From Euglena gracilis (lineage: Eukaryota): a stretch of DNA of 64,000 nt. Made by a program: the position numbers and the translations under genes. The notes beneath the pieces were generated by a model. It made no database searches. It saw only the letters and a list, made by a program, of their open reading frames with translations, and was not told the DNA's origin. Within the stretch, counting starts at the first letter, position 1. Each line of letters begins with the position of its first letter. Of this stretch, positions 37,542 through 64,000 are shown piece after piece. Location of the stretch: assembly GCA_039621445.1 (NCBI GenBank), contig CP154954.1, positions 38,835,816 through 38,899,815 on the forward strand, in the 5' to 3' direction.

Positions 37542-37602
<61 letters not shown>

Positions 37603-37796
37603 CACATCTATCCATCCATCCATCCATCCATCCATCCATCCATCCATCCATCCATCCATCCATCCATCCATCCATCCATCCATCCATCCATCCATCCATC
37701 CATCCATCCATCCATCCATCCATCCATCCATCCATCCATCCATCCATCCATCCATCCATCCATCCATCCATCCATCCATCCATCCATCCATCCATC

Positions 37797-37827
<31 letters not shown>

Positions 37828-38674: not shown

Positions 38675-38804
38675 CAGGGTTCGATATAAGGAGGGCGTAT
38701 ATGGTTTAGGTGGGGGGGTGTCCCCCCCCCACCCCCCCCCCCCTCCTGGCCCGCAGGGGGGGGTCCGGACCACCCCCCCCCACCTGTCCTTATATCGAAC
38801 CCTG
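38675..38804. mobile_element. 130-bp hAT-like MITE with perfect 18-bp TIRs
   Basis: CAGGGTTCGATATAAGGA / TCCTTATATCGAACCCTG, flanked by G8 on both sides. Same family as 28377-28728; duplicate copy at 45404-45532. Confidence 0.9.
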
Positions 38805-41087: not shown

Positions 41088-44000
41088 GCTGTGTCGTGGA
41101 GCGGCGTGGCAGTGCCCCACCCGGAGGACAACAACTGGCTGCTCTGCTCGGTCCCCGGGGGCAACCCCAAAATATGCCAGTGCCTGACGTTCAAAAGCGA
41201 AACCGTACATTGGGTGCAGGTTTTGTTCCACACCAAGTCCACCATTGGCAAGCGGTCTTCGGGATGTGTGGGCACGACGGAACGACCCCACCTGGGCTTT
41301 GTGGGAGCATTGCAATTTTTGGGGAAAGAACAACTGTTGAAATGCCGCGTTTGCCGTCCATCCGGCGACCGCCTCCGGCGCATGCCCCTCTCCGCCCCCT
41401 TCCCGTGCGTGGTGGCGTGGCTCCGGGGGCCAGGGGACGCCGGCGCTGTTTCGGACCTGAGAAGCCCCCACCCATCCCGGGGGGGGGGGGGTGGGAGGAC
41501 AAGGTTCGATAGGCAGAAGATGCCTGGGGTCTGGGGTCCGGGGTCTGGCGTTAGGTGAGGGGTTGTTTCTTTAAATCCCCCCTGTACAAGGCACACCGCG
41601 CTTTCGGTACACACCCCGTGTCAACGGCACATCCCTGGAGCACTGCTGTGTCTATTGTGAGGAGGGGGAAAGGCAGACGGTGGCGGCGGGGCCGGGGCCT
41701 GAACAATGGCATGGCCAAATTGATATATTTGGCATACAGTGCCAGGCAGAAAGGTGTCAACCCTAAACTCAGCCAAAACTGCAACACTTTTTTTTGTGAA
41801 GAATTTGACAGAATTCTGAAGATTTTCTGCCAAAGCATCCATCAAAATGTCGAAAATGGCAATATTTTTTCAGAAATTTTTGTTTTTCATCGACCCAGCC
41901 CAGCCCAGCCCAGCCCAGCCCAGCCCCCTCCATCCCCGGGACCCCCCCCCCTTTACCCCTGGGGGGTCCAGCCAGCAGCCTTTTTGCCAGCCGGAGGCTG
42001 CCCCCCCCCCACGGGCTTTTAAGAAAACCCCTGGCGGCCATTTTTGAAATGAATTTTTCTGGGTGGCACCCAGCTGGGTGGGCCCCAAGACTGATGATAC
42101 CCGGAACCCCACAAGGGGGTGCCTGGCACTGGGCTGGCACCCACACCCCCCAGCCCCACTCCCAGGGGTTTCGAAAGAAGCCTGCCCGGCAACGGGCTGC
42201 TCTTTGCCCCCCGGTGGACCAAGCTGTGGCTATGACGCTCCCCAGGGATACCTTGGTTGCATTTGTGCAGAGGAAGCAGCAGGGGGCAGAAGTGGGGCGA
42301 TAGGGGCCCCCGCCGCCAGCCAGCCGGGCCGGCGTCCCCTGGGGCGGACTGGCCCGGCAGGCGGTGTGGCCGGTGGTGGGCGTCTTGCTGGCGGTGCCGC
42401 TGCTGCTGAGGCTGTGGCGGTGGTTTGGGAGGTGTGGCCCCGGGCGCTGTTGCGGGGGCGGGGGGGCACCGTTTCCCTGGGGCTGGGGTGTGGCACAGTC
42501 CACTGTGGGGGCTTCATTCACAAGAAATCAATCGCCCTCCTGTCCACCCTGATTTCAAGTTCCATCTATCAGCTCTTCTGGGCTGGCTTTCGCCAGTGAG
42601 GCTGATACACACTGCTTGTGCGGAATCGCATAGGTTATTGGTTGACGTCGCATGCAATCGTGCATTTTCAAGGCGCGTTCGGATCTGACGAATTTTGGAG
42701 GAAATGATTGAAGGATTGGATGTGGGTGAGTATTGTGCGAGGCTCCGGAATTTGCGCCTCAGTGCTGCAAATAGTCAACAGGGGCCTCAACGTCACCCCT
42801 CGCGGAGGAGTGCGCCTCCTCTGTGCCCCTCTTGTGCCCCTCTTTGCCCTGATGGAGAAGGGTTGTTTCCGGACCCACCTCCTGCCCCCCCCCCAGGTAC
42901 CGCAGGGCGGTGCAGCAGACTCGATTCCTACCGCAGGCCTTTGCTGGCAAGAGGCGAGTTGCGAATGATATGTCGGCAAGCGGCGCAGATGCCCGCGCCA
43001 GCTATGGCGTGGGGGGGAGGGAAAGAAGAAGGATGACGAGGAAGGAAAGACGCAGAAATGGAGCGAAGAACCGTCCTCGGCGCCTAAATCCCCCACGACA
43101 ATGGCTGGTGCGTGTCTGTTGAGTGATTTCGTAAACAAAGGCTCCTGCGCCAGGGCATCCAGTCTGGTCGGTCACCTCGTACACAAACCCATCAAAGGTC
43201 TGCTTCGAATTGAAGTGGTGCTCAACTCCCTCGAGAGCTTGGCTGGTCAGCCGTTCGCTGTCAGTGGTGTGCAGCGGACGCTGGAGGAGGAGTATGGAGC
43301 GCAGGTGTGCTCCAGTCCCGCTTCTGCCCGCAACATCAAGGTTTGAACAACGGCAACAAGTTGAATGTGCTGCTGATGTTTGGGTTTCGCTAGGATTCAG
43401 AAAGTTATTTCTTTGGGGTGGGTTTTGTCATATCCGGGGAAGGGGCCCAAAAGATGGACACTTAGCATTTGAAGTTTTGGGGTGGTTTGACTGAATTTCA
43501 ACAGATTCTCAGACGCATTTTATCACCTCATCCTTTTTTTATGGTGTACCTTCCATAACGGACAACTCATTATCCTTCCTATCACCTCCAGTGGGATCTT
43601 TTTTTTTTGGACGGGGACGTTGCCTCGTATCCGTTTTTGAGGTTCAGTGTTTCCCTCCGCACCCGTTGAGTGTCGGCTTTGCTCCCATTGTGGGGGGGGG
43701 GGCCACAGGAGGCTCCTGTGGGCCTCCAGGAAGCTCCTCACCTCACGGTCCTCAGGTGGAGGTGGCCACCCTGTGGCCCGACGTGTGCCGGGCTGTGGAG
43801 ACGGACACGCACGTGACAGTCCAGAACCAGCCCCGGGCCGTTCAGTTTCGATCCGGATTGAACGGCCAAAAGCAACCCAGCAACGACCCACAACGAAATT
43901 CACACTTGGGAGGACCCCGGCCTCGGCAGGTTGGTTGAAGGTTGGAGGCGGAACGGTTGCTGTAATCCCCCCCAAATTCCAGGGTGGGCCAAAAGATCTA

Positions 44001-44266
44001 GGTGTTTGCAGTGAGGGGTTGCTTGAATTTTGGGGGTTTTTTGCGCATTGCATCGAACCTTGTTCAAAGGAAAGTGGAGGTCTGATGGGAATGTGGTGCC
44101 AAAGAATTTTTACGTATGGATTTTTACAAACTTTTCTGTTCGGATTTAACCAATTCTTTTTTTATTTTTTTTGAATGTATTTCCACTCAATAAGCGATGA
44201 AATTTTCATTCAAATATTGCTGTTGGAACGACCAAAGCTCCAAACTAAAGCAAACCATGGACAACA

Positions 44267-44333
<67 letters not shown>

Positions 44334-44529
44334 CACATCTATCCATCCATCCATCCATCCATCCATCTATCCATCCATCCATCCATCCATCCATCCATCC
44401 ATCCATCCATCCATCCATCCATCCATCCATCCACCATCCATCCATCTAACCATCCATCCATCCATCCATCCATCAATCCATCCATCCATCCATCCATCCA
44501 TCCATCCATCCATCCATCCATCCATCCAT

Positions 44530-44567
<38 letters not shown>

Positions 44568-47500
44568 TTGGGTTGTTATAAACAGCAAAAATAAAGAAAA
44601 GACAAAAGTCAGCAGCAGGGTTACGGTAGGAGATGGCTCAGTAGGAGGAGGATCTCGAGACTACTCGAAAGTGCTCGAAACACACACAGAGCACTGGGGC
44701 TTGTGCTTGATATGGATCAGCCATGCTGGGAACACAGATTCACTCAAAGTGTACTGACCTCTCCCCTGGCGGGTTTTGAGAGTGGGCGGGTGGTTGGGGC
44801 CGCTACCCCCCACCAGGTGTTGGGGTGACATGGGTTAGTCTGCTGCGGCCGAAGGCTGGGCAGAAAATCCAGCTTGATTTTTTCTATGCCCTTTTGGCCG
44901 ATTTTGGGTGGGGTTTGGATAGGTGGTGAGTGGGTGTTGGATTTTCCAAAGGACCCCCCTTGGGTTTTTTCCCAGTTCACGGTGGATGGGTGGACCCCCC
45001 CCCTCTGGGGTTGTGCATGGGGTTGTTGTTTTTTTTAAGAGAAAAAAAGTGGGTGGGGGAGTTTGGGAAGAAGCCCCCCCCCCCCCGCCGCCCCAGGGGA
45101 TGAACGGAAGATGCACGCTGGAAATTGTGCTAAAGGGCATCACAAGTGTCTTCTTTGACGCCAAACGCCGGCCATGGGTCCCAGCCATGGGGTCTCTCAG
45201 TGCCCTGGGGCTGCCCTCACCACGCCGGATGGGCCGGCTTGGGCCTGGGCAGCGCCGGAAGGCAGCGTTGAGGGGTAGCGGAGGCAGGCAGGTAGGCCAT
45301 GCTGCGCACTCAGCTTGCCACAACCCTCTCCCTCCCCCTCCCCCTCCCACGGTGGAGGGCGTCTTTTTGGTGGACCGACGCTTCCAACCGGAGGGGGGGG
45401 GGGCAGGGTTCGATATAAGGAGGGCGTATATGGTTTAGGTGGGGGGGGTGTCCCCCCCACCCCCCCCCCTCCTGGCCCGCAGGGGGGGGTCCGGACCACC
45501 CCCCCCCCCACCTGTCCTTATATCGAACCCTGGGGGGGGCACTTTGTTTGAACTGCAGTGTACATTGCATGCCTTTCCCTCATCCAACACAATAGATCTG
45601 CTTTGTTTGGAGGAAAGGTCAAAGAGCTTTGTTTGACATGGAATGTTTGCCACTGGGATTCACCTCTCTTGGTTTGTCGGTGGGGGGGGGGCGATGTCAT
45701 CGTTGGACGTACGCTCCGTGGAAGGGGGGTGCCCTTTTAGCTACCTGCTCGTGTACATTTTTGGACCCCACTCTGCTATTTTGGGGGTGCATTGATCGAA
45801 TCAACTTGCTGAAAGCAGCTCGTCTCTGCAACGTCCAACCCTTCAATTTCTGTCTCCATCTCCCGCTGTGTTCCCCGCTGTTCTTCCTTCAACTACCCTG
45901 GCGCCAACGCCATCATCTGACCACCCCAGCCATACCCCCACCCTCTTGCTCACGCACATGCATTTGTGTCTGACCCCCCTCCCCCCACCCCCTCAGGTGA
46001 GTGCCGTCGCCCATCAAACAGGATCGACAGGAGCGTTCCGTAAGTCCGCAGCGCTCTGCATTTTTGGCAGCTCGCGGCCTGTGCCGCTCCATTGTGCTGC
46101 CCTGCTCTGCCTGCCCTGCTCTGCCTGCACATGCAGTTGTCTCGTGGCCCAGTACACTCTGTTACCCTCTCCCGGCCCTCTGCCCTCTCCCGTGGCACAA
46201 CCCCTTATTTGCTGCTGCCCGTCTTCTCCCCGTGACCACTGGCAGCACGCACCCCGGGCGAATCGTCTGTACAGTAAAGTGTCTCGGGCCTGCTGGAGCG
46301 GAGTGACTCCTTTCCACAGCGCTGGATACGGCTCCGCAACCTTCTTTCCCCATGTAATTTCCGATTCTCATCCGTCTTGTACAATTTTTAAATACATGTT
46401 TTTGTGTGGCAGTTTTAAACCTTCCCAAATTTTCAAGCTTCATGATTATCGCCCGTCTGTTTGTGATTCACTTCAAAATTCAGATTCCACCCGAACACTG
46501 ATAAACACGTCCGTTGGTTCAGCAGGATTTCAATCATCAGTCGAAATGTCAAAGGTTCCTGGCAAAACAAATTGATTAAAACCAATTGTGCTCGATGGCA
46601 AAGACTCACTTTTGACCTCTTTGAGCAAAGACCTCTTTTGAGCCCACGAAAGCACCCCTCGTCGCTCACAAGTTTTGTATCCTTCAAGGGTTTAGGTGGC
46701 CAGCAATACATAGCCAGCGGTGCTCATATCATGCTTTTTAAATGCCCTCGGCAATTTATGCTTTGATGTTCAAAACCTTCATTTCCTTGAGAAACACACG
46801 TCAAGTTCAATTAAAGTTTGCACCTCTCTGCAAATGCAAATGAACGCTGCTTCGTTTTGCAGGAGGGCATGCTTTTCTCTTCATTTTAATGTGCCAAAAG
46901 ACATTGAAGTGCCAGTTCTATTGCGAACAAAATGGCAAGCAAAAAAATGACAGACAATCCTTTGGATTTAAAAAAAAAATGCAGCTGGTAAAGTAGCCGA
47001 TTGCTTATTTGGCAGCAATTGACAATGAAAGACTTCTTTTTCCTTGGCACATTTCATTTCCTTGAACACACAATCAACCCCCAAATAAACACCCCCCACC
47101 CCCCATCTGGTGGGGAGGGCAAAATTACCTCTTAGGGGGATGGGGTCCCCTTTTAAATGAGCAAAGGCAAATCTGTTGAAGGAAAGGGTCAAAAATAAGG
47201 CAGGGGGTGATGGGAAAAAAACGAGGCAGAAAGCGCCGGGGGGGGTGGGTTTTGAAATTACAAAAAAAAACTGCAAAAAAAATTTTGGAGTCTTAATTTA
47301 ATCAAAATAGTGAAAACAAATTTACAGAAACACGAAGCCAAAAAAATTTGAGAACCTGCGGGTTTGTTTTGGGCAAAAAAATAGTTTTGAAAAGCCCGGG
47401 AATCCAAGTACTGAAAAAAAAATTTGCTGCTCGGACGCCCAAAAACGTGTTTGGGCGGGGTACAATATCAAAGGGGCACTCATGCACAAAAAAGTTGAGC

Positions 47501-48533
47501 AGGGGCGGTGCGGGCGCCATTTTAAAAAAAATCTAAATGGTGAAAGTAAACGAAATATAAAGTCTGTAGTTTCGAAAACAATTGTCAATGGGCGAGCAAA
47601 AAAAACCAAAAAAGGTGACCGGGGGGCACCTAAAAAGTGGACAATGTTGGGATATTGGGATCCCAAGAAAAACAAATGCTAAAAGATTTGTCGGTTTAAG
47701 CGGGTGAATAAAGAAAAATGTTGCATGACGGCCAAAAAGAAATATGTTTGGGGCCGCATGCTATTGCGAGGGGAGAAAAAATCCAAGGGGAGTTTAATGG
47801 TCAGTACAGATGTTATCATGGGGGCCCTCTGATTTTGGATCCCCGCTCCACCTGAAGAAAAACCGCTCCCCCCCGATTCACGAAAATCCGTCCTCTGGTG
47901 GAGGGAGCAAAAAATATTGTCTAGATAATTGGTCCTTTTTTCAGGCAAAGTTCCTTTACTACGCTGAAAAAAAGGGACCAAAAAACCTGGCAGCACAAAA
48001 TTCCAATAACTGGCACCCCGCCAGGTTGTTTGGGGGGAGGGGTTTAATGCCCCACCCCAAAAAATTAAGACCCCCCGGCAGTGCAAAGCGCCGGGGAGGG
48101 TGAAACTTTTCCTGCAAATTACCAAAAACCCCAATTTCATTAACAACAAGTGTTGAAATTCAAAATTTTTAGATGTTTGAAGTGCAAAAAAATAGTAAAT
48201 TTGAACTTGCACTAATTTACATACATGTGGGGCGAAGCGCCAAAGGAAAAACTTTGGTGTTTTTGGGAACCTGAAAATTGACGTCTTTTCCGGGCCCGGG
48301 TCAGTGGAGAAAAAATCCAAAAATAGGACCGGACCCCCCCCCCCCAACTCCGGCGTTGCCGTCCAGTGTCGCCGGACTGAGGCTGCAACTGCCCCTCCGG
48401 ACGCCTGGGGCCGGCCTCAGTTGTCTGACCGGTTGGACCAACCCGGCTGCCGCACCGGAAGCCCTCCGCCTGCCCCTTCAGCTCCGGCTCCCCTTATGCC
48501 ACGAGGCAGCCCAGCGTGACCTCCGGCGGTGGG
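41088..48533 (+). repeat. Second copy of 34336-41073 (3' half of the MSC gene plus intergenic DNA)
   Basis: Colinear and near-identical. Scattered substitutions and indels fall mainly in the first ~2.3 kb, and about 47075-47990 is garbled or unmatched. Confidence 0.95.
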
Positions 48534-51500
48534 ATGTTTGGCGGCGTCGAGGTGCGCCTTTGCGATGGGTTGCCCCCGGGGACGGGACTGCGCTGATTTG
48601 CAGGGGTTTTGCCGTTATCTGTGGGCAGTGCCTCTGATCTTTTCTCCCCCTAATCCTGGTGTTGGTGTGCTGTGGTATGTGCAAGTGCAGTCGGTGTTGA
48701 CCGGAAATTATGTTTGCTGACCTGGCTGCATCGCAACTCTTCGTCTCCACCTGTTGGATTTCTGTGGCGAAACAGGTTGCGAAGTGGGGACCAGAGCGAC
48801 CCTCCCTAAACCCACCCAAATAATCAACCCGAGTCCGGGTTTGTGTGATCCATGCTTTCTGGTAGTGGACAATGCTGATTCGTGTGTACTATTTTGGGAG
48901 AATTGCACTGAATTTGTTCAGCAGAGGTAATTTGTCGGTCTTTGTTGTGTAGGGGACTGGGCTTAAATCCCAAATCCTGAAAAATATGTTTGCAATGCGG
49001 CAATGCGGTGTACACAAAATAGGATCCTTCCCCAAATGACACTCATTTTCGCCCAAAATGTTTTTTATTGTTTTGCCGTACAGTCTGTAGGGATGACAAT
49101 CATATGGGAGGGGTCGCTAAGCTCATGTCCGAGCAGAGCTTATCATGGGGCCCTTTTGACCCCCCCCCCCTCTCGGGGCCACCTCGGGAGAACCAAGATT
49201 CCCGGTGTGAACCGACTCCCACCCCGGGAACTTTTCTTGGAGAAAAATATCCCCACGGTCCCTCGCATCCAGAGATACCCTTTTGTCATCCTAATTTTGT
49301 ACCCACACGAGATATTCCCATTTTGACAGGCCGAGGTCCAAAAAAGGGACTATAAAACAGGGTCTCTCTGCCAGCCAGAAACTACATATTTTGAAGTAAC
49401 TCCCCATGGCTGCTGAGTCGCAAAGAGGGCCCAACAGAAAAATTCAAACATGTGCAACGCCCTATCCAACCATACCTGGATTTCCTGGAAGCTGCATAGC
49501 TGGCCAAAGTTATGCCCTGAATCCACAGCCCCGTTTTTTTTTGCTGTGTTTTTCGACCGTTTTTGGTCCGGTTTTTTGGTGAAAATGGGCTAAAAAAAAC
49601 ACACAATTCTCAAAATATCTCGAAAATTACGCAAAATGAAAGAAAACGTTTGAAACGTCAAATGAAGCACTTGGCCCGAGATACGGCACGTTTACGCTGC
49701 AAAACAGTGCTGCAGCCCTCCATCTCTGCCATTCTCGGCCGTTTTTGGGTCAATGAATCAATTTTTCCGCTGAGTAGTCGGGCCGGGCCGGGTGGGGCCG
49801 GGCCGGACTGCCAGGCCACTCCAGGCAGGGATCGATGGGAAGCCCTTTGGTTTTGAGGCAGGTGGGGGGTCTGGACCCCCACCCCCCCTGGCAGGTTCCA
49901 AAAGTAGCAAATTTTCTTTTCCGGCACACAGCGCCGGAAAGTGAGCAAAAAAGTGTTTTTCCTCACTTTTGAGGATATTGCAGAATTTTTGATGTTTTGG
50001 TGTTTCCCACATAAAAAGTGTTCTAAACTTTTGAAAAATGAGCATTTTTTTTAATTTATTTTCAAAGAAAAATCACCGATTTTTTTATACCAATTTTGGC
50101 CTTGTATCCGCCCTTTCCCGGTCCACAAAATCGAAAATTTTCCTGGCCCCCTTCAGTCTCGAGGTTTGAGGGGGGTCTGACCCACCCCCCTCTATTGGGA
50201 GGGGGTCCCCCCAAGGCTTCCCATACATCCCTGTGGCCGTTCTGCAGGGCCGCACCGCCGGGCGTGTTGCTTTTGATAACAAAGAGCTCAGCCCGATTCA
50301 AAACCTGGTTAACGAAACGACACAATTGGCAGAGCTTGCAATTTCTGCCTGTTGGAACGGTGACAAATCATTTTTTGTGGACATGGCCTTCCTCCTCGAC
50401 ACAGCGTTTTGCAGTTTGTTGACGTGTGGGTGGATTTTGGAGCCTCTTTTTTTTTTGCTCGAATGCTCATTTGCATGTGTGTGGCGTCCCAGGAACAGCT
50501 GCAAGCACAATGATGCCCCCCCCCTTCCCCTCGTCCCTCCGCCCCCCCCCCCGCAGATCGTGGCGGGGGGCTGCGTCATCTTCTGGGCGAAGCGGCGGTA
50601 CCTCGGCAGCGCCGCCGGCGCAAAGTTCTGCCGCAAGGCGGTGACGGAGGGGCCGGAGGCGACCGTCCCGGTGGCCCAGGTGTGGGGCGGCGCTGGCCTG
50701 TGAGGCAGTGTTGGGTAGGTAGGTGTAGGGCAGGGCTGTACGGGAAATCCCGAAACCCGATGGGCGGTGGGTGGGTGGTGGGTCCGACCCCCCCCCAGTT
50801 TTCCCGTGCACCTCTGAGGTTGAAACAAAGGTGGAAACTTGTTTGTGGCCTTCCCCGTGGCACAGCCTTCCCCCGAGGCCGGGGACTCCCACCTGTGGGG
50901 TGGCAGGGCCTGCCCCCCCCCCCCCCTAGCATGTGCGGGACCGGCTGCGGGAGCTGACGGAGGCGGACCAGCAGCGGCGGAGGCAGCGGCGGGCAGAGGG
51001 GGGCGAGGGGAAGGACGCGGACAGCGACACCGAGGCGCAGCTCGACGAGGAGGAGATCTTCGGGTCCGGTGTGGTGGTCGCTTGGGTTCCTGGGGGAGCC
51101 TTACCCCCCTCCCCGCCCCCTGATGTTGCTTTCGAGTCGGGAGAGCATCGCCCAGAAAATCAGAGGAATCGGGCAACCAGGTAAACCCAAACCCCCCAAA
51201 TACCTGGCGAGGTGCCAGGTTATTGGAACCAACTTTTGGCCCTGCCCCCCCCCCCTGTCAGGTCATTTGGGCTTTTTTTTTTTCAGCGTCGTAAAGGAAC
51301 TTTTCCTGAAAAAGGGGGGGGGACAAGTTATTGGAACCATCCTTTTTGCCCCCCACCTCCCCGCCAGGATTTTTTGCCACTGCCAGGAGCAAGGTCCCTG
51401 CCAGGTTATTTGGGGGGTGGTTTACCCTGAATAGATTCCATTTGATCACAGTTTTATAAATTTCTTCCCAGCAAAAGAAGGGAAATTGCAGGTTCTTATA

Positions 51501-54500
51501 CCATCTGCTCAAGCATGCAGAACGCGCACAATGCACGTTTTTACGATGTCTCCAGGTGCCTCTAGCCCTTGGTGAACGGTTTCTTGCAGCACGGGGGTAA
51601 AATAAATAAGTATTAAGTTGATGTATGAAGCTGATATTTTCTTTACCATCACAGAAGGTGTTCCCGCTTGCGTGTTTTTACAAAATTTGCACGGCACTGT
51701 TGGGGATGATGACGTTGGAGGCAATAATTGCAACGACAAAACTACTCAATTGCTGCAGCCTACAAATGGAAATGGAACAAAGATGGAAACTTGAAACGCT
51801 TTGGAAATTAATGGGGGGGAAATATATTTTTTTCCTTCACCATCTTGCATCTTAAGGATTGGGTTGAATGGATATTGCTGTTGTAATCCCAACAGAAAGG
51901 GAAGCGATGTTGAACTGATTCCCGGCGCAGATGTTCGGTGCTCCAACAGTCGAAGAAAGAAAAAAGCGGAGAGGCCAATTGGTGCCATTCCAAACAACAG
52001 ATTTATTTCACCATTCTCAACTGTCTCAGTGAAACAGCAATGCCATCTCTCTCTTTAGAGCAACGTCAGGTATGTGCTCATGTTTATTGTGATCTTCCCC
52101 TGCCCAGGTGTGTGGGGGGTGGATTTCATGAACCTCCGCTACCGGGATGAGCCCATCAAAAGCGTGGCACTGTACGAGGAGACAATCAAGCCCCGGCCCA
52201 TCCTGCCGATCATTCACCCGTATGTGTTTCACTTCCTGTGTGTTATTATTCAGCGCGTATCCACCAGCAAGCTTGTGAGGCTCCTCATTCCGTTTTCTCG
52301 TTTTGGCGATGTGACTCTTTTTTTCGGGTGCCCTGGTTCTGGCAGAAACCCGTGAAATTCCACGTTTTCGACGTGCCTGCTTACAAGAATCGTTGCTGCC
52401 GTCCTTGAGTGTATCGCGATGGCTGTCCCGATGGGTTACAAATTGGTTGGAGAGCCGCCGGGGGGGGGGGGCAGCGCCGCTGACCTTTCGAATCGGGCGG
52501 CGCAGGTACATCCTGGTGGAGACGGAGACGTGGATGTACGTGCTGGAGAAGTGGCGGGACGGCGTGGCCATCTCCCGCTTCAAGCGGAAGGTCTGCCCGA
52601 TGTGCCCCCCACCCCCACCGATTTCCACGGGCACCCCCGTGTTCACGGCTCACTTGGGACCCTAACACCCGCTGAAGGACTTTGTTGGGAAAATGAGAAG
52701 TGTAGGAATGGGAGAGAGATTTGCCATCTGTGAGCTGAGATGTGTGGCTTCTGTGAGACACGTGTGGCTTCCGCTCTCTGCCCAGGTTGAAGCAAAAGTG
52801 TGCCTGCCACCAGCCTTGGAATGTAGTTAAAGGGCTTCTTTTTAACTTGGAAGGCTTCCCAGGGGGTGGATGTGTCTGGGACCTGACACTCCCTGGGGGG
52901 ACCGGGGCCGGAGGCCCGAGTATGGTTTTGCAAAGCACCAAAATCTTTTTGGGGAAATGCCTTTAGACAGCCCGATTTTTCTGGGTGCTCTCCCTCCCCC
53001 CCCGCGGGCCCGTGCCAGGCCGGTTGCATAGGGGACCCCCCTCCGGGGTCTCAAAAAGAAGCCTGTTTGGTTATCCTCCGACCGATATCATTCTTTTCCC
53101 CGTTGGTTCAGATGCAGCGTGCTACACCTGCCATCTTCCACAATGCTTTTGTGGAAGATGCGCTGGATCATTGCCCCGTTGGCCCCGAGAAGGTGGCCCA
53201 AGGCTCGTACCAGGGGCAGAGCGCTCGTTTTTGGAGTGCCGACGCAGCCAATTTCGGCCGAAAATGGCTGAAATATGACGTTTTTTGGGGAGTCCGTTAC
53301 CAACGTGCTATTTTGCGCCTCCCGGGCGGTAACTGCTGCGTTTTACGCACGCCCGCCGCAGGCCAAATTGCGTCTGTCTGCCCGGCGCCCTTCGCAACAA
53401 TTAGGTAAAGGATCGCCGACCTCTAGCCGGGGCAGATCGCTCGTTTTTTGGGCACGTACGCAGCCAATTTCAGCCGAAAATGGCCGAAAAAGGAAAGACG
53501 ACACATCCTTTCTTGACAAAGTGAGAATTTATTTTCCTTGTTGTTGTGGTATTTGGCTGTTTGTTTGGGGGGCACGTTGCCTGTATGTTGTTGCCGAGGC
53601 GTTTTTCGCAATTCCCCAGGTTTGTTGATTTATTTTCAGTTTTTTTTTTAACACCTACTACTAGAACTTTCAACCCTCTTCTGCTAAGGAATTTGCTTTG
53701 TTAATGCGTTCATCGGATTGCGTAGCTTCTTCTTTCCCTTGATCAAATGGAAAGTTTTGAAACTTTACTCAAAGCTGAATAGATGCTCTGTTGCCGAACA
53801 GCTCGTCTTTTGTCAAAAAATGGAACCTAATTCGGCCGAGAGGCAGGGGGGTTCGAAAAAAGGAAAAGGTGTGTGCGAGGTTTAGGTGGGAGGTGTCCCT
53901 CCCTCCAGACCGGGGGGGGGTGTCCGCCCCCCCCCCCCCCACCTGCCAAGGGGGTCCGGACCGACGCGGAGGGTACCTGACCCCCCAAAACAGTTCAAGT
54001 TTTTCCTTCCGGCGCTTTTCACATTTCGGAAATTTCCGTTGGATCGATCAGCAAGATATCATGCCGCAGTGGGCCCTCCTGCTCCAGCTGAAATTGCGAA
54101 AATGAGCCATGAGTCAGCTATGGATTCTGTTGAGCTCAGGGTCCATTGCAGCTGGCTGGACTCCCCAAGGGGTCAGCCAGCTGCCCCCCTCCCCCTCCCA
54201 AAATGGCACTTTCATTTTCGGCCTGAGACTTTGCATTGGGCCGAAAACCAGTTACCCACCCAGACCCAGACCGCCATTGTTTAGGTGGGGTGGGGGGACA
54301 CCCTTCCTTCTCTTCATTCTGCTTCATTTGAGCAGAAGCCAGCCATGGTCTCAATAAGTTCTTTGTTTTCGCTGCGGTGGTTTCTGTGCATTCTTTTTGC
54401 CGGGCAGGATGATGCCGTTCGCAGCCGGGGCAAATGGTTTGGGCCCGGCCGGCTGTCGCAACGCAAAGCGCCGCACCTCGTCCAGTGTGCCACGCCGTGC

Positions 54501-56396
54501 TTGCCATGGATTCCGGAGCTGCGAGTGTGGACTGGCAGTTTGGTCTTTCACATGACCAATTTTGATCAAACCTTTCCTATCAATATTCATGGCATGCAGA
54601 GACTCTCTTAGCTCAGGGAGGTTGAATTTTTCCCTGCCTCACGGGGGGGGGGGGCAGGTGCTACCCGGAGGGGGGGGGTTCCTCTAATTTCGGTGCAAAG
54701 CGCCATTTTTTTTTGGGCCCCAAAGTTGACCCCCCAGGGTTATACAGGGATTCTCTAAACCCATGGGTGGCTCCCCTGCCACCAAGCCTTCTGTTATGGA
54801 TTCAACCCCTCTTCGTCAAAGGCGAGCTCTTCCACTGCGCCCCGGAACACACCCGGACGTTTTGGAACAGCCGTTCACCCCGAGTACTGGCGCAGTGTTT
54901 CGGAGAGGATTGCGTGTTGGATTTCCAGCACGGCACACCTTTTGCTTGGACGTGCACAGTGTGCCACCGTGTGCGGCACAACCAACCGGATGTGCATGTG
55001 TGCAGGGGCAACCCACGACGTTCCACCATTCTGGGGGCACCGGTTTTTTAGCTCAATATTTTCCTTCGGTGTCGAAGGAATTTTCCTTCCAGGGTGCTGT
55101 GGTGCGTGGGGGGTGATCACCCCCGCACAGCCCCCCCCCCCCCCAGAGGGCCTAAGGGTGGGTGCAGGGATCCTTAAACTCTGATCCCGTACCTTCCTTC
55201 TTCAATCTCAAGACAATTGGATCATTTCAACACTTTCAACATAGATCCAACGACCCCAACTCCGATTTGCCATGAGTGGATATGGTTGAATCAATGCGTC
55301 GGTGGGAGTGCTGGAGTGACTGCCTTTCGGGGGGGGGGGGGGTGGAAGTTGCTGATTGGTTTCAAGGCGGTGACTGGCTGGTGATTTGTGAACAAGCGGC
55401 AGGGGGTGGGGACGGTGAGCTACATGGTATGGCCCGTCTCTTTGGGCGCATTCTTTAAAAAAATTTAAGGGTGATAAGACTTCCCCTGCTTCTCCTTCTC
55501 CTTCAACCCTGGAAGACATGCACAAAGAATGTTCAGAATCCGGAGACCCGCAGATTTGACCCCCAACTGTGGTCCTCAACCAAGCCCCCAACCCCCCTCA
55601 CGCCCCCCTTGCCGTATGCTGCAGGTCGACCACCGACGTGCGCCTCACCACTACAGAGCTGCTGTGCTGGGCGATGGAGCACCCAGAGTTCAAGCAATAC
55701 ACCGACCAGGGGTATAGTCTTGGCCCCCCCCCCCCGGGGGGGTAGGGGGGGGGGGTCCCTTGGACCGGGGGGGGGGGGGGGAGGGGCTGGTGGGTATATC
55801 TTTTTCGGCGCCAAAGGCGCTGAAAATTTTGAAAAGGTGCTATTTTGGCCATTTTTTTGGCCATTTTCGGGCAAAGGTGGGTGGGTCCCCCTGGAACTCC
55901 CCCCTCCACCCCGGGGAGCACAGGGAGTGGGTGGGTGGGTGCTGACCCCCCCTGGTCTTAAAAAAATCCCTGGCACCGACAACTGCCACACCTTCGCCCA
56001 CGTCCCCCGCCCGGCAGCCCCCGCTGGCCGCCTCATCCTCGGGAGGCGGCGATGCGTTCCCCTGTGGGTGGGCGGGCGGCTGCTGGGTTGGCCTGCCTTT
56101 GGACGTGCTCGGGAGCAACCTGCACCTGGCGGGGGGGGGGGGACGAGTTTCCCCCGGTGGTGGTCAATTGGCGTTCCGGCGTCCATGCCCCCCATTCTCT
56201 TTTTTTCTCACACGCTTTTCTGACCCCCCCCCCGGCGGAGGGCATCGAAGTCCGGGCACGCCCCGGGAGGCCCGGCGTGCCGAAGGCGCCCCCCCAACCC
56301 AATCGGCCGCCGGGCGGGGCCGGCAACTGCAGCCGCAAGGTGGGCATGGTGAACCCCAACAGCTTCTGGGAGGACGTCCTCTACGACGACTACTGA
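48534..56396 (+). CDS. Putative permuted papain-fold (PPPDE/LRAT/NlpC-P60-like) cysteine hydrolase with a hydrophobic N-terminus
   Basis: Phase-consistent exons: 48534-48551 (MFGGVE), 50557-50679, 50930-51068, 52108-52219 (..DEPIKSVALY..LPIIHP), 52506-52590 (YILVETETWMYVLEKWRDGVAISRFKRK), 54408-54484, 55625-55703 (..TTTELLCWAMEHPEFKQYT), 55978-56008 (DNCHTFAH), 56091-56128, 56241-56396 (..FWEDVLYDDY*, possibly containing one further intron). His on a predicted beta strand precedes an (F/Y)x5NCxxFA motif. Confidence 0.75.
55704..55977 (+). other. Nonconventional intron, equal to a MITE (55707-55972) plus one TSD
   Basis: gacCAGGGGTAT...AAAATCCCTGgcacc; flanks ACACCGAC (55699-55706) and GCACCGAC (55973-55980). 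Removal gives FKQYT|DNCHTFAH. Confidence 0.85.
56009..56090 (+). other. Short nonconventional intron (82 nt)
   Basis: CCCGGCAGCC-CCCGC pairs with GCGGGcGGCTGCTGGG. The phase-1 join gives FAHVPRLPLDVLGSNLHL. Confidence 0.7.
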
Positions 56397-56595
56397 CCCG
56401 CTGCCCCCCCTCTCCTCCCCCCCCCCCCGCCCTCCGGTGGGGTGGGGTCTGTGTGTGGGGGGCAACGCCCCTCAGTGGGAGGACGGTGGCTGGGGGGATG
56501 CGGTAAAGGAGACCGTTGAACGAACGAAGGGGCAACCCAACCAGGCTTCTTCTTTTTTTTTTTAACTTGGAACCCCCCCCCCCCCGGGTCGGAGG

Positions 56596-56948
56596 CAGGC
56601 AATTGCTTAAGCACTGACCAACCCCTCCCCCCCCCCCCGGGGGGGTGGGTGACTGGTTTTTTCAAAGTGACTGACTGGTTTTTGGCCCGGACCCCTCCCC
56701 CCCCGGGGGGGGGTCGGCCAGGAGTGGGCAAAAGTGGCTTGAGTGACCCCGGCGCCGAAGGCGCCGGAAAATTTTTTTGGGCCTAAAATGGCCTAAAGTG
56801 ACTGGAACGTGGCCGTTTTTCTGAGTGGCCGACCCCCCCCCCCCCGGGGGGTTGTGACTGGCTGGTTTTTTGAAAATGAGTGACTGACTGGTTTTTAAAA
56901 AAGTGGAGTGACCCCCCCCCCCCACCGGGGTCGGTAAGCAATTGTATG
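56596..56948. mobile_element. hAT-like MITE with perfect 8-bp TSD, nested in an older MITE (about 56542-57549)
   Basis: GTCGGAGG at 56588-56595 and 56949-56956; TIRs CAGGCAATTGCTTA / TAAGCAATTGTATG. The outer element has ends CAGGCTTCT / AGAAGCCTG and 6/8-matching flanks. Confidence 0.85.
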
Positions 56949-58775
56949 GTCGGAGGCCCAAACATGGGTCTCAGTGCAATGCGCCTGAATTTTTTTTGGG
57001 AAATACCCTTAGACAGCCCGATAATGGTTAGGGGGTATCCCCGCCTGTCTTTTGCTTAAAGGTTCACTGTACCCCCCCCCCCCAGGGTGGACTACGGACT
57101 ACAGCTAGTCCAAATTGGCCAGTGGAAATGCTCAGGGACCTGGGAGGACCGCTGGCAGGGCCAGTGCTGGAAAACCCTTTCTAATAACCGGCGTGAAGCG
57201 CCGAAAAAATTTTGAACCCCAAAAACCGGCCAAAAATGCCCATTTTTGGCCAGCTTTGAGATTTTTCTGGAACAAATTGGCCAAAAAACAATGCATTTCA
57301 CACCCGATTTCCACCGATGGTGGAGAGCTACGGATGAATTTTTTTCCATTCGGGACCCCTCCCCCTGGGGAGGGGGGTCTAGCTAGTGCCTCTTTTCCAG
57401 TGTCTAGTAAATGGCTAGCCAGCGCCCCCCCCCATCCTTAAGCAAAAGCCTGGCCCACGCCCCACCTCCCCGGGGGGGGGGGGGAGGAGCCATTCTGCAC
57501 CGGGCCGGGTGGGTGGGGGGACCCCCCGGGTGTCTTAAACAGAAGCCTGGACCCCACCACCAGACCCTCCTCCAGGCCCACCATCTGTTATGTTCTCTGA
57601 CCCAAGGCATCGTAACCTTCATTCCTGTGACCTCAGGCTCTTCCTGACCTGCCACAGCAAACCTCCTTCAGCAATCACCAGGGTTGACTGGGACTCCCCA
57701 AAAGCCAACGGTGGAGGGTCAGGGTTTTGGTGCTTTCCCCGCAGACTGCAGGAAGGTCCAGATCACACCCCCATGACCACCAAGGGGGTCCAGGCCAACC
57801 CCGAAACGCCCCAAAACGTGCGTATTTCTTTCCAGTGTTTTGCGCAAACTTTTTTTAAAAAGAGCACCTTCCACAAAATTTTGCCCAATTTTTTGCCTGT
57901 CAGAACCGATTGACCAGCGCAGAATCATAGAATTTCCTGAGATTTCCACTTTTCCCCTGCCACTGGTGTCCTCCACTCCATCCTGATAGGCGGGGCAGGT
58001 TCCCACGCCTTCCATTCTTTTGGTGCCTCAGAAATTCTCTGGTCAAAAAAATATCAACGTTTTTCGTCGCAAAGTGCTATGGTTGGTGGTGGGTGCACCC
58101 GGCCACCACCAACCATTTTTGGTTCCCGCATTTTGGCATTTTGGTTCCCGCAACTCTGGCAATGGCGCATTAGACCACTCTGAACCCTTTTGACTGCATT
58201 AATCACCGGCTGCTGGGCTGCTCTCAAATTCTTGGGCTAATGATGATAGAAGCTATGCGGAGGTTTTTTTTTCTTCAAATGTGAGTGATTCACAGAAGGT
58301 CTTTCAAATGGATTGGATTCCTCCCATTTTAAACCCAAGGTTCCTCACCCGGGCAAAAATTGATGGGAAGGAAATTCGTCATTTTTTGAATATGAATGCT
58401 TTTGTGCATTTTTTAATTTGGAGTTTTATGGGTTTCGGTGAGGGTGTTGATTGTGGTGAGTTATGGTCACTTCACAATGAATATTGCAAAGAATGAATAG
58501 CAGAAGAATGTCTGCAACTCCAAAGCATTCTGAAATCAGCGAAAACAACGCAAAGTAGGGGAATTCCCTCCTAGCGGGTGAGTCTAAGTAATCCGGCATG
58601 GACGACCGCCAAAAGGCAACGTTCATGACATTTTTTTTTTAGAAAAAGGAGATGCCTTTTGAGTGCACCTCCACGGCCCAACGTCATTTTTTTCCCCTGT
58701 AGTGCTGTGCACCGTGCTCATTTGGAGGGGAGACGATCAGCAGGATCAACACCATACCCGCCCTCCCCCCCCCCC

Positions 58776-59172
58776 GGGCAATTGACGCCCCCGGGCAATT
58801 GTCACCCCTGGCTGTGCCGGCCAATTTGTCACCCCAGGAAATTGTCACCCCCCTCTGTGCTGCCCAATTTGTCACCCCCCCCCCACAGAAGATGTTTGTG
58901 AACTTTCTTTTCGCCGGCACGGCTCGATTGATCCTCACCAAATGCTCTGCACAATATCACAACCATAGCTGCATTTTTGCGGGTTCACTGGTGTTTCAGA
59001 TGGTGTTCTTGGTCATTTGGATTTAATGTGGCCTACATGGGTGGGCAATTGACGTCCCCGGGCAATTGACGCCCCCGGGCAATTGTCACCCCCCTCTGTG
59101 CTGGCCAAATTGTCACCCTGGGAAATTGTCACCCCCCTCCGTGCTGTCCGATTTGTTGCGCGACAATTGCCC
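58776..59172. repeat. Two copies of a GGGCAATTGACGCCCCCGGGCAATTGTCACCC-based repeat with AATTGTCACCC subrepeats
   Basis: Blocks at about 58776-58885 and 59043-59172. Confidence 0.75.
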
Positions 59173-62100
59173 GGGGGGGGGGGCGGGTATGCTTTTCTTT
59201 TTCCCTTCTTTCCCATTCCCTGTGTGTGGGCCAAGTTTGGGGGCCAATCGTAAATCTGTCATGGACGTTTCATCCTGCTCTTTCCAAAAACTTGGCCAAA
59301 ACAATTGGTGGGGACAGACAGGTTCCCAAAAGTTAAAGCAGCAGGATACAGTGAAAACTTAAGCTACAGCTTTGTAATCAGTTGGTGTTGATCCAAAGAA
59401 CCTTTGCCACACGCACACAAATGGAGTGCACATACCATCAGAGCAGTACCGTATCCCACATTTTATTTTGATTTGAAAATTCCAATGGACATTAAGGGGA
59501 TCTTATTCTTGGGACGGGTCCACATTTGGATCTTTGCTGAAAGGATTGGCTGGAAGAGGTCTTCGTCCATGAGGTTCCAAAATCAAAGGGCAGGATTTTT
59601 GCAACAAACAAATGTTGCCTCCAAAGATGCCAAGTTTCAACAAACGAGAAAAAATATAAGCCAAAAATCACCATTTCAAAAACTCATCCATTTTCGATTA
59701 TTTTGCACAATCGTTTTGCACATGTTAGTTTTAGAAGGGTCTTCTTTTTAGATTTTTGCCAAAATTGGCAGGGGTTTTATTTGAGGGAGGGTCTTTAGGC
59801 AAACTTGTTGATTCAAGGCTTTTGCTGCGCTTTGGCTTGGACCGTCCCATTCAGGCTTCTGTTTCAACTCAGAACACCCCCTCGAGGGGGTGCAGGAAGG
59901 ACCTATTGCTTAATTGGCCTGGAAAGCCCAAATGATTTTGACCTTTTTTTTGGGTTGGGGTCCCTAAAATTCCCGAGAATTTCCTAAATGGCCCAAAGTG
60001 GCCCAGATCACCTAAACCGAGAAAAATTTGGCCATCCTCCTTTGAAATTGTTTTTCAAGGGACGAAAATTTTGACTTTGTGGTCAGGACCAACAATCTTG
60101 GGTTCCAAGTGACTGCTTTCTCAATCCAGGCCATTGAGAGGGAGACATATGATGGGGTTTTCTGGTCATGATTCTGCGATTCTGGGATTCTAGGAACTTG
60201 GTTTCAACCTCTCTGGCAAGAAACCCAAACTTACTTTTTCTGGGTTATTGCAGTTGAATTGCATTCTCCCCTCATTTTGGCATTTTCACATTCGGAGCAA
60301 GTGTCCAACAAAGTTCTCCATTTCTTATTATTTAATTATCGAAGGCCTTTGCGCCATGTGACGCAGTTGGCACCATGGGGGAGGGACACAGACACTTTTT
60401 TTGTGTGTTTTTGTGGTGTTTGAATTGGCAAAATTTGTGGGTTTTTTTTGCTTTTTTTCTTGTTTTTTTTTTTGTGTTTTTGTTTTCCTCCGGCGATTTC
60501 TCATTCCCATTTTTTTAGAAATTTTTCGACTTCGAAAAAAATTCAACATTTTGGCCCGATTTTTCCCTGTGACCAAACTTTTTGCCAATTTTTGTCATCT
60601 TTGGACTATTTTTGGCCAAAAATTGCACATTCCCGAAATCTAAGCGAAATACATCAGAATATAGTTGCACAATAAATGATATTAACAGGTGAAATTTTTC
60701 AAGTCCACTCCTGAATAGCGTATATCCTGGGAGTTCCTGAAGGAATTTATGCAACTGCCGCTCTTTTTGTGTTTGTTTGTTTGCTTTTTGTTTGCGTTTT
60801 TGTTTGCGGCTTTTTTTGTGTCGCATTTTTTGAGGGTCCATTGTGCTTACCCCCTGTTGGCACCGAATACAACCCAGAATTGTGATATTTTGAACCCCCA
60901 CCTACAGTTTAAAAATGACCAACCTAAAGTGGGCAAATTTTAGGCTTGATCACAGGCTCTTGGGTGCGGCACCAAACAACCTCTGGGGGGGTCCTGGACC
61001 AGCAGCCTGGGTATGGGTTTCGACCGGAGAATTTTTCGAAACTGCCCCGAGACAACCCCATTTCTGGGTGGTTTCCGGGGGGGATCCCGCGCCGGGCTGG
61101 GTGGGTGGGTGGGTGGGTGGGGTGGGAGGACCCCCTGGGTCTTCAAGAAGCCTTGCACCATTGTTCAATTTGTGTCCAACCCCAACCCTGAGGGGTGCAC
61201 CTGGTATTGCGGAGTGACTGGCTCCTCTTGGTTCCGGACAACACCAACACCTCTGGGGCTTGTGGCACCGGAACTGGCCCAAAGAAATCCGTTTGCACCG
61301 GGGTTTTTTTAGTCTTGGACCCCCTCCCCCAGGGGGGAGGGGGGGGGGTGGGTGGGTCCCTTGGACCCGGTGGGTGGGTGCCGACCCCCTCCCCCCTCCC
61401 CCCCCCCCGGTCTTAACCATCAGAGAGTGACACCCCATTGGTATTCGGCCATATCGGCCCCCGGCCCGCCCGCCCCAGCGCTTCGCCCCTTGCTGCTTAC
61501 CCCAGTGCCATGCCCTGGGCTGCCCGTCCCTGTGCCGGGTTCCCTGCACCTTTTCCTGCCTGGCATTGCCCTCACTTCCCCCAAAGCTGTTCACCCAAAA
61601 GGGAACCATTTTCCACATTTTTGCCAAAAGGGAGTATGCGAGGCATAAAGGGACAGCACAAAGCACCTTCGTCTTCATCAAAATGGCCCGGCCAAGTCAT
61701 CCCGGGGATCCAGAGCGAAAACCCTATTTTTCACCCCCCCCCCACCCCATGGGCAGGGGGTCGAAAAAAACTGGGGGCAGGCGGTTTAACCGTTTAATGG
61801 CTTGAAGGAAAATTTTGCTTTGTGTTGTGCGTTTTATTATTTTGTTCACGCGGCACTGTGCAGATTGTGAACAATTATGCCTGTCGTGCATCCAAAAAAC
61901 CAAACTGTTTCTGCACATTGAAAGACAACACAAAGGGTTTGAAGTCATTGATGGCGTTTTTCATGATGAAGATGGAGAAATATCCGAAGTTCCCCCCCCT
62001 GCTCTTCTTCAGTGCCATGGCTCCTCCCCGCACCCCCAACAGAGCACCTCCATTTCAGCCTTTGGCCCCACTCCTGTATTCAGAGAATTGGTGCATTTCT

Positions 62101-62975
62101 CACAGTGCATCTCTTAAGCGGTAAATTGGAGGGGGACGCATGAGACACACGGTGGTGCCGAACGATTTGCAGGGAACGGCAACGTTCTTCTTCGTTCGTG
62201 GCAACCTTTCTTGTGGGCTTGCATTTGAGCACAAATGCCTTGTTGTGAAGCAGTTCAGGGGGGAGTTCATATGCTTCTTCCGAACATCTTGTTTGCCACA
62301 CTCACTTGTTCCTTCAGCAATGGAATGCATGCTGTCGGCGGTTGAAAGCCTGCTGTGCACAGAAGATTCAAACTGGATCATTGATTTGAACGGTGTGCGC
62401 CTCCACCACTGTGCGGGGAGAGAGTATGGAGGTCCTGCACCACATTGAAACATATCCAGGAGAGGGGGGGATTGGGCTCGACCAAGTTCAGCCCATTGAC
62501 CTCCTGCCATCTCCCTTTGTCCTTGAACCAGGGTGGTCATTCTTCAGGCAGCCAGGAGACCAAGGAGGGGGGAGGGGGTCAGCCCTCCACCAAAAAGGGC
62601 ATCCTCCTAGCAACGTTTTGCAGTGTGATTTTCCCTAAAGAGAGTTGGTTTTATCTCCGGAAAGAAAGTCACGGCTGATTTGGCTTCTTCCTCAGTCAGT
62701 GGCACGGGAGTCCACCGTCTGGTCATGGCAACTGGAATTCTCCGCCGACTCCCAACCCAAAAAGGAATTTCAATTCCAGTTTCGATGCAGATTCGATCGC
62801 TTGGTCGGCAGACACCCGGGGCCCAGCACCCCATTGCACAAGGCACCCCCCTCCCTGGGGTTGGCAAAAGGAGCAGCCTGGTCTACGCTTTCGGGGGCTG
62901 CCCTCTCCTTGCCGGTGGTGCAAGACCACCCCCTGCGGTCCGAAGGTTTACGTGCCACACATTATGTACCTGCAG

Positions 62976-63958
62976 ACCTGGGCTTTGGCGTGAATGGAGC
63001 AGCACACCTGGGCGAGGTGCTGAGGGGGAACAGCACCGTGCAGAAGCTCCGCATCTGGAGTGTGCCAGTGAAACGACACGCGTGCTCTGATTCGCATCCT
63101 GGGCCATCTTTTCTTTGGGTCATCCACTTAAGGTCCTTTCAAGCAAAAACAAGGGGAACATCCGAAAATACCAACGTCAAGTTTAGGGAGTTTGAAATTG
63201 GTCACATAATGGCCACCCCACACCACCATCATCTGCAGTTTCAGTGATGCGCTGATGAACCTATGCATTTTTTCCGTGCAGGTGCAATTGACCCCCAAAA
63301 CAGTGGCACAGCAAGTTGGACCACTGGACCGAAAAAAAATACCCTCATACTGGCCAAAAAATGCTGGGTTGGGTAAATCCCCCCTAATAATAAACCCACC
63401 CGGTTTATTATTTGGACACCTGAAGTCGGGGTCCGGGGGGGGGGGGGTTATTATTTGGGGGGGTTTATTATTTGGGAAAAAAATTCGAGGTCAAAATTCG
63501 ACCAGAAACCCCCTACACAGGCTCCAATGGTCACTTTTTTGGCACTTTTGGGCTTTTTTTGAAAATTGGGTGCTTTTTTGGCATATTTTCTGCACCAATT
63601 TGATCTATTTTTGTGATTTTTTGCAACATTTCTGCTAATTTTTTACTCTTTTTTTCTTTGCCCTCACACCTGCCAGAGGGGGGGGGTTATTATTTGGGCG
63701 GCCGATTATTATTTGGGCGACCTCAAGGGGGGTTTATTATTTGGGGGGGGGGTTATTATTTGGGGGGGGTTACGTTTTCGAGAAGGCATGCGAGAGATCC
63801 GTTAAAAAAAGCGGTGCAAAACACCAGAGGGAGAAAAACCTGACCCTTTTCTCGTACCCCTCTGCTCGTTTCAGATAACGGCATCGGCCCTGAGGGGGCC
63901 CGGCACCTGGCAGAGGTGCTGAAGGTGAATGCCACCCTGCAGGAGATCTATCTGGACC
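62976..63958 (+). CDS. Leucine-rich repeat protein (RI-like/NLRC3-type 28-aa LRRs), partial
   Basis: Two 84-nt phase-1 exons: 62976-63059 (LGFGVNGAAHLGEVLRGNSTVQKLRIW) and 63875-63958 (NNGIGPEGARHLAEVLKVNATLQEIYLD). Each has a CAG acceptor and a GTGTGCC donor; the gene continues beyond the window. Confidence 0.9.
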
Positions 63959-64000
63959 GTGTGCCCTCCCCGCCTTTTGCTGTTCTTCCCCTTTCTGTTG

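Follow-up and report, generated by a model that had tools for sequence, protein, structure and literature searches.

A nonconventional intron in an expressed gene of Euglena gracilis very probably has a MITE (a miniature, non-autonomous DNA transposon with inverted-repeat ends) as its core, and splicing very probably removes this element together with one 8-bp duplication's worth of sequence. The intron, at positions 55704–55977, lies in a stretch of 64,000 nucleotides (assembly GCA_039621445.1, contig CP154954.1, positions 38,835,816 to 38,899,815 of the forward strand). The whole stretch is hereinafter designated the window, and all positions are counted from its first letter. The host gene encodes a PPPDE-like protein. 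Viewed simply as an intron, 55704–55977 is nothing unusual in Euglena, and good local evidence backs the specific mechanism that an earlier note on this DNA had proposed from its letters. In this mechanism, a MITE would have inserted into a coding exon and duplicated the 8-bp target ACACCGAC, one of whose eight positions would since have changed. The inverted ends would pair in the pre-mRNA, and the nonconventional splicing machinery would make its cuts 3 nt before CAG and 5 nt after CTG. Removal of the element plus 8 nt would restore the uninterrupted codons ..Q-Y-T-D-N-C.. What is new here is the documentation of the intron as a member of a MITE family, the exact 8-bp duplications on sister elements, and the equality between the two spacers of the splicing code (N3 + N5) and the length of the duplication.

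Two contig runs taken as RNA (X15 and X16) and two raw RNA-seq runs (X21 and X24) were aligned to positions 47201–64000. In these data, the joint 55699->55974 skips 274 nt, equal to the 266-bp insert plus 8, with 7 nt that fit either side. The joint is present in one contig of depth 214 in X15, in one contig of depth 162 in X16, and in 18 reads with 17 starts in X21. The same 1068-nt contig is found in X15 and X16 and, with the raw reads, outlines a plus-strand gene. The earlier note had described coding frames ending in ..EFKQYT and resuming at DNCHTFAH with no GT-AG pair at the junctions, and had predicted the junction 55703^55978. Direct reading agrees with the former, as GT..AG borders are absent from all eight registers in which the 274-nt intron can be cut. 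Consistent with the latter, the RNA joint removes 274 nt, and the predicted register is inside the eight-position ambiguity.

The code of nonconventional introns, 5'-N3CDG-/-CH'GN5-6 followed by an exonic R, was set by knock-ins (Nomura et al. 2025, PMC12501133). A change of the 5' spacer by one base in either direction abolishes splicing, while the 3' spacer tolerates 5–6 nt (PMC12501133). Only one register of the present intron, k = 4 (55704–55977), fits this code, namely GAC-CAG...CTG-GCACC with G as the next base. The ends of the intron form a terminal 8-bp stem, CCAGGGGU/AUCCCUGG, in both the minimum free energy and the centroid folds. Accordingly, removal without GT/GC-AG borders, the N3-CDG/CH'G-N5-6 code before R, and pairing of the ends place 55704–55977 among the euglenid nonconventional introns. 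Like those described previously (Nomura et al. 2025, PMC12501133; Milanowski et al. 2014, 2016), it has no GT-AG pair, CAG at +4 to +6, CTG at −8 to −6, a terminal stem, a downstream exon that begins with a purine, and a junction that is slidable owing to direct repeats, and it adjoins GT-AG introns in the same gene. As an intron it differs from them in nothing. What it adds is a core that belongs to a repeat family with a further copy in the window, and a slidable repeat that can be read as an 8-bp target duplication equal in length to N3 + N5.

The splice restores a conserved sequence, since the spliced product matches a known transcript and orthologues keep the sequence across the junction. 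Specifically, the spliced product contains 242 amino acids, 241 of which are identical to P0003, a source-named Euglena gracilis transcript, and its stop codon is at 56394–56396. The junction-spanning sequence ..KQYTDNCHTFAH.. / KQYTDNCHTFAHNCS / ..EFKQYTDNCHTFAHNCS.. is kept in all five euglenid orthologues (5/5).

The 266-bp insert with CAGGG...CCCTG ends, together with its flanks, reads exactly as the earlier note gave it (Table 1). It has several features of a MITE: it is short and non-coding, it carries terminal inverted repeats, and it belongs with a flanking duplication of fixed length, which is exact (8/8) at sister elements. The likeness to an element at 33003–33251, also claimed in that note, which called the element free, is confirmed by global alignment, with a score of 63 compared with 10.6 ± 4.5 in 300 dinucleotide shuffles (z 11.7). 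The likeness is in the same orientation only (reverse-complement score 6.5), with a mean column identity of 77%. We designate the two copies family B. The copy at 33003 has inverted ends matching at 9/10 positions, and its flanks, which lie in G-rich sequence, match at 7/8.

One might suppose that the intron is an old, ordinary nonconventional intron, and that its 7-nt repeat and its likeness to 33003–33251 arise by chance from low-complexity G/C and A/T runs. The sequence is indeed rich in homopolymer runs, a profile made from the two copies gives many weak matches across the window, and the fold of the whole intron is no better than that of shuffled sequences (z −1.26, not significant). However, the shuffles never scored above 29 compared with the 63 observed, and the alignment is collinear and includes the non-homopolymer blocks TTTTGAAAAGG.GCTATTTT, GTGGGTGGGTGGG and GTCTTAAAAAAA. 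In addition, random pairs of 8-mers in the window match at 7/8 or better with a probability of 0.0013 per site, and such a match is seen at both family B copies. A chance origin is therefore barely credible.

The spacer letters of the two copies also bear on how the family spread. It could be imagined that an excised circular intron was reverse-spliced into a new transcript and then copied into DNA, and there are reports that nonconventional introns leave the transcript as full-length circles (summary in PMC11282704). Spread of this kind would be expected to carry the N3/N5 letters of the parent along. Instead, the letters are GAC/GCACC at intron 7 (55704–55977) and GGA/GTGGG at the 33003 copy, each pair matching its own flank, a pattern that favours target duplication in the DNA over carry-over through RNA. 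Moreover, several elements of the window have 8-bp duplications without evidence of lying in exons. Spread through RNA is thus highly improbable.

The 33003 copy was considered as a possible intron of a minus-strand gene. Removal of the 33003 element plus 8 nt joins two long minus-strand open reading frames (ORFs) into one of 380 codons. A search for homologues of near that length found nothing for this fusion. A 199-codon open frame on the minus strand at 33259–33855 ends at the insertion site; it has no Pfam name, and its relatives are P0008, P0009 and P0011 (45–49% identity, representative library), which stop matching 2 residues before the 33003 junction. This frame probably represents an ORF or repeat family dispersed in Euglena.

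A degenerate, shortened relative of family B is present at 61291–61420. At 55765–55786 and 61332–61352, depth reaches the thousands, and numerous reads and contigs connect 55786 with about 61332 or trail off into G-runs there. These apparent joints reflect cross-mapping rather than splicing, because the short G-rich element block is common to many transcripts or repeat copies.

Table 1. Coordinates of the intron, its host gene and related elements in the window
Feature	Position	Strand	Details
Host gene (transcribed span as seen)	48481–58188	+	Probably trans-spliced 5' end; six GT-AG introns followed by four nonconventional ones
Nonconventional intron 7	55704–55977	+	274 nt; phase 0, between Thr211 and Asp212; RNA joint plus code register
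Left copy of 8-bp target-site duplication	55699–55706		ACACCGAC; read directly
MITE core, family B	55707–55972		266 bp; CAGGG at 55707–55711, CCCTG at 55968–55972
Right copy of 8-bp target-site duplication	55973–55980		GCACCGAC; first base differs from left copy
Micro-exon between two nonconventional introns	55978–56001	+	24 nt in code register, 27 nt (55974–56000) as aligned; encodes DNCHTFAH
Nonconventional intron 8	56002–56324	+	323 nt; core 315 + 8; flanks match 4/8
Nonconventional intron 9	56539–57555	+	1017 nt, in 3' untranslated region (UTR); AAC-CAG...CTG-N6, then A; core 56542–57549 (1008 bp)
Nonconventional intron 10	57676–58163	+	488 nt, in 3' UTR; CAC-CAG...CTG-GCAAT, then G; core 57679–58158 (480 bp) + 8
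Second family B copy	33003–33251		249 bp; flanks GTGGGGGA (32995–33002) and GTGGGGGT (33252–33259)
Degenerate, shortened family B relative	61291–61420		Starts CCGGGGTTTTTTTTAGTCTTGG; 3' end decayed; limits approximate
CAG...CTG element	12652–12729		78 bp; 14 terminal bases printed complementary; exact 8-bp duplication CGCTGGAC
327-bp element	16440–16766		CAGGCTTCTT ends, same terminal 10 nt as intron 9 core; flanks TGGGGGGC/TGGGGGAC match 7/8
Family A MITE	28377–28728		352 bp; inverted ends match at 10/10; 8-bp duplication ATTGCACC exact
Family A MITE, 130-bp deletion derivative	38675–38804		Ends 87–91% identical to 28377–28728; flanks GGGGGGGG

The window contains other elements of the same build. 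All 1203 CAG...CTG pairs with inverted ends matching at 8/10 or better were scanned, and their flanks were compared with shifted controls. Six pairs have 8-nt flanks identical at 7/8 or better, compared with 0.5 in the controls: 12652–12729, 28377–28728, 16440–16766, 33003–33251, 38675–38804 and 45404–45532. Those at 12652 and 28377 are exact (8/8) and not low-complexity. Exact flush repeats of length 8 occur 3 times, compared with 0.38 in controls; repeats of length 7 also occur 3 times, compared with 0.75, only one of them not low-complexity. Ten exact 9-bp flanking repeats at CAG..CTG pairs were rejected, all being artefacts of a satellite at 2565–3253. Satellite-like tandem arrays, partly inverted to each other, occupy 240–1194 and 1520–3295 and yield false duplication matches in repeat scans.

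Thus two or more families of CAG-ended elements, each in several copies and with 8-bp duplications, are present in the window, among them families A and B. The shortened family A copy at 38675–38804 has a duplicate at 45404–45532, and the flanks of both are uninformative because they are G-runs. The duplicate lies in the second copy of a 6.1-kb tandem duplication (34336–40382 and 41088–47104, 96% identity, with a 13-N gap between). This second copy has an extra 789 bp (47105–47893) with direct repeats of about 20 bp at its bounds, which may be real or an assembly effect. As the only large indel of the tandem duplicate, 47105–47893 was considered as an empty/filled site of a MITE and rejected, having no CAG/CTG ends and direct repeats of about 20 bp. 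A decayed CAGGCTTCTT-type element, with the 3' end AAAAAGAAGCCTG and a mutated 5' end, is present at 52833–53065 inside GT-AG intron 5 of the host gene, an instance of such an element outside exons.

The further copies bear on another explanation, in which the direct repeats come from repair of staggered double-strand breaks at intron gain and the likeness to 33003–33251 reflects copied filler DNA. Such repair has been offered for the 8-nt direct repeats at a newly gained nonconventional intron of E. agilis gapC (PMC4770533). However, the window contains several mutually unrelated element families whose limits coincide exactly with CAG/CTG inverted repeats and whose 8-bp repeats are flush, and families A and B each have at least two copies, at unrelated sites and with different flanks. 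Exact ends, flush repeats and copies at unrelated sites are together the signature of transposition, and break repair is very unlikely as the source of the intron.

Seven sites were compared by eye for a target pattern (12652–12729, 16440–16766, 28377–28728, 33003–33251, 55707–55972, 56542–57549 and 57679–58158). At five of the seven, at least one duplication copy ends in AC on the plus strand; 33003 shows this only when reverse-complemented, and ATTGCACC does not show it. At six of the seven sites, one or both copies have a purine at position 6; at 56542 both have C there. By eye, the pattern could reflect a preference at the target or be connected with the purine rule of the code.

Four joints of the host gene lack GT-AG: 55699->55974 (274 nt), 56000->56324 (323 nt), 56535->57553 (1017 nt) and 57670->58159 (488 nt). 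They correspond to introns 7–10, and removal equals the core plus 8 in three of the four (introns 7, 8 and 10). Introns 9 and 10 fit the published code, with N6 and N5, respectively. In intron 9, the core carries inverted ends of 9 bp, CAGGCTTCT, and internal matches to the family B profile at 56628–56902, while the flanks of intron 10, GCAATCAC/GCAATGGC, match at 6/8. Intron 8 is spliced (18–19 X21 reads plus contigs) yet lies outside the CDG/CH'G code; its perfect 10-bp stem, CCCCGCCCGG/CCGGGCGGGG, is placed as usual, from +4 to −6. The earlier note had suggested comparing, genome-wide, the 8 nt before CAG with the 8 nt after CTG. Run on these four introns, the comparison gives an excess of identity. 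Specifically, the 8-nt window from −5 to +3 gives 7, 4, 6 and 6 matches of 8 in introns 7–10, or 23/32, compared with 9/32 and 8/32 in the neighbouring 8-nt windows (background 0.253 per position; binomial 4e-8 for 23/32). Its statement that splicing removes the element plus exactly 8 nt is correct for three of the four introns, 55704–55977 included, but not for intron 9.

Several observations weigh against the account given here. In the RNA, X24 gave 0 reads for the joint 55699->55974, yet 6 for the neighbouring GT-AG joint. The eight cut registers, with 55703^55978 among them, are equivalent and not separable by RNA reads; because the RNA cannot fix the cut within eight positions, the register of three before and five after rests on the published code. 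The 8-bp target-site duplication of the earlier note is seen as flush 8-bp flanks and is exact on sister elements, but the flanks of this copy, ACACCGAC and GCACCGAC, match at 7/8 and not 8/8. Its inverted ends are short, being perfect over 5/5 bases and matching at 7/10 over the first ten, and only two clear copies and one degenerate copy of family B were seen within the 64-kb window. In the same gene, intron 8 has CCC/GGG instead of CAG/CTG and a flank identity of only 4/8, and removal of intron 9 takes the core plus 9. Junction identity is also raised in the eight GT-AG introns of the window (28/64), as expected from the AG/GT...AG/G consensus. Finally, three of the eight elements examined end in CAGAC, CAGGC and CAGGC, which are not YARNG; of the 93 listed ORFs of the window, the 10 longest gave no Pfam family and so no transposase domain; and E. 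gracilis is reported to have two Merlin families, with an intact DDE motif and duplications of 8 bp (PMC8101967).

The last of these points bear on the transposon superfamily. An 8-bp target-site duplication and YARNG ends are the hallmarks of hAT elements (PMC3014272), and Ac/Ds elements have the end (C/T)AGGGATGAAA and duplicate 8 bp (PMC3260210). YARNG fits both ends in five of the eight elements examined, including CAGGG at both ends of 55707–55972, and the first 7 bases of the Ac/Ds end are shared by the 33003 copy and by the 3' end of intron 7. To judge by an 8-bp duplication and ends of the YARNG/CAGGG type, the insertion was probably made by a hAT-type transposase. The hAT label of the earlier note agrees with these two features, but with no transposase among the window ORFs searched, membership of the superfamily is not established.

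The same MITE-intron could instead have been mobilised by another superfamily that duplicates 8 bp, such as Merlin, P or similar. Literature searches found no paper reporting hAT in Euglena, where the Merlin families are on record, and the three elements with CAGAC or CAGGC ends do not fit YARNG. In addition, the N5-6 tolerance of the code, which allows 8–9 nt in all, resembles the 8–9 bp duplications of Merlin. However, Merlin elements have a conserved terminal GG (PMC8101967), while all elements here start with CAG flush with the duplication, and CAGGG fits YARNG with the first 7 bases matching the Ac/Ds end (PMC3014272, PMC3260210). We regard a non-hAT mover as rather unlikely. The Merlin elements of Euglena gracilis come from the same group of organisms and share the 8-bp duplications, but differ in these ends (PMC8101967).

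Close parallels are found among introners. Those of Micromonas and Aureococcus (Huff et al. 2016, as summarised in PMC11282704) are likewise DNA transposons with inverted ends and a target duplication, removed as the element plus one copy of the duplication. They differ in that they use the spliceosome, with GT/GC-AG sites partly co-opted from a 3–8 bp duplication (PMC11282704). In contrast, 55704–55977 follows a CAG/CTG stem rule that does not look spliceosomal, and it needs no splice dinucleotides. It works like an introner, but it is not a spliceosomal one, as none of its registers is GT..AG. The non-canonical introns of Fritillaria borealis and Amoebophrya are also transposon-like, have non-GT-AG borders, and are tolerated by modified splicing, but they have other border rules and 3–5 nt duplications and are thought to be spliceosomal (PMC11282704, PMC7789003).

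Maize Ds1 hAT MITEs resemble the elements here in their 8-bp duplication, their (C/T)AGGG ends, their short, non-coding bodies and the little internal likeness between classes (PMC3260210). They differ in that Ds uses the ordinary spliceosome and is usually spliced imprecisely. The elements here are rich in G/C runs inside, and no autonomous partner or transposase is known for them. A Ds insertion was reportedly described by Giroux et al. in 1994 as being spliced as a de novo intron (cited in PMC3935182).

A transposon origin of nonconventional introns is not a new idea. A MITE origin, CAG/CTG as inverted ends, and junction repeats resembling target-site duplications are all in print as a hypothesis (PMC3935182, PMC11282704, PMC12501133). 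In papers from 2014 to 2025, the origin is described as mysterious and the transposon theory as still undecided (PMC3935182, PMC6221363, PMC12501133), and as of 2014 transposable elements had not yet been identified in any euglenid genome. The eight-nucleotide direct repeats at the gapC intron were read as a trace of break repair, as described above, and the 84.4% of all E. agilis introns that are 'slidable' were set aside in PMC12501133. The available text of PMC12501133 ('hat' 0, 'duplication' 0) and of PMC11282704 ('hat' 0, '8 bp' 0) ties these introns neither to hAT nor to an 8-bp duplication. Our searches, whose scope was openly accessible main text, found no paper linking N3 + N5 to an 8-bp duplication.

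The insertion site lies beside a conserved cysteine, Cys214, which is encoded in the micro-exon of 24–27 nt between introns 7 and 8. The earlier note had called this cysteine putatively catalytic. Its conservation and its position next to the insertion are borne out, but Pfam lends no support to the assignment, and a catalytic role in the PPPDE-like protein is only a lead. Specifically, Pfam on the 242-residue protein gave no family at E<=1 except a chance MatP match, so PF05903 (PPPDE / Peptidase_C97) was not among its results; Pfam on single exons gave nothing, and a sequence search of the PDB gave no useful match. The PPPDE-like name comes from the UniRef name of the orthologue P0007 (PPPDE domain protein) and from a PPPDE cluster among the nearest Atlas clusters (feature match 0.95). 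The AlphaFold (AF2) model of the protein, with a pLDDT of 49.6, is too poor to use.

At the 5' end of the host gene, contigs carry a loose end, TTTTTTTTC, just upstream of 48481, and the same loose end is found just upstream of 62317. It resembles the 3' tail of the Euglena spliced leader. Because of this resemblance, 48481 and 62317 are probably the trans-splice acceptors of two neighbouring plus-strand genes.

The window supplies a concrete case of an expressed, precisely spliced nonconventional intron with a MITE-family core, beside MITEs with exact 8-bp duplications. As a general rule, which we infer here from four introns, the 3 + 5 spacing of the code would be matched to the 8-bp duplication. 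If the spacing equals the duplication length, new insertions into exons would be harmless at once. If the proposal is true, exon insertions in either orientation would be removed scarlessly, because CAG...CTG reads the same on both strands. There is about an even chance that the asymmetric 3/5 spacing of the code exists because it sums to the 8-bp duplication of CAG-ended, hAT-like MITEs. The match between spacers and duplication makes the hypothesis testable genome-wide and predicts the type of transposase to seek. In E. agilis, about 466,000 nonconventional junctions are implied by the published proportion (71.8% of 649,158 analysed; PMC12501133).

If the reading of 3 + 5 as 8 is true, it would explain the roughly 70% of Euglena introns that are nonconventional and mostly 'slidable', and the machinery that removes them would act as an excision system at the RNA level, having co-evolved with a single transposon superfamily. 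If general, it would account for how the Euglena genome tolerates a massive invasion of its exons by transposons.

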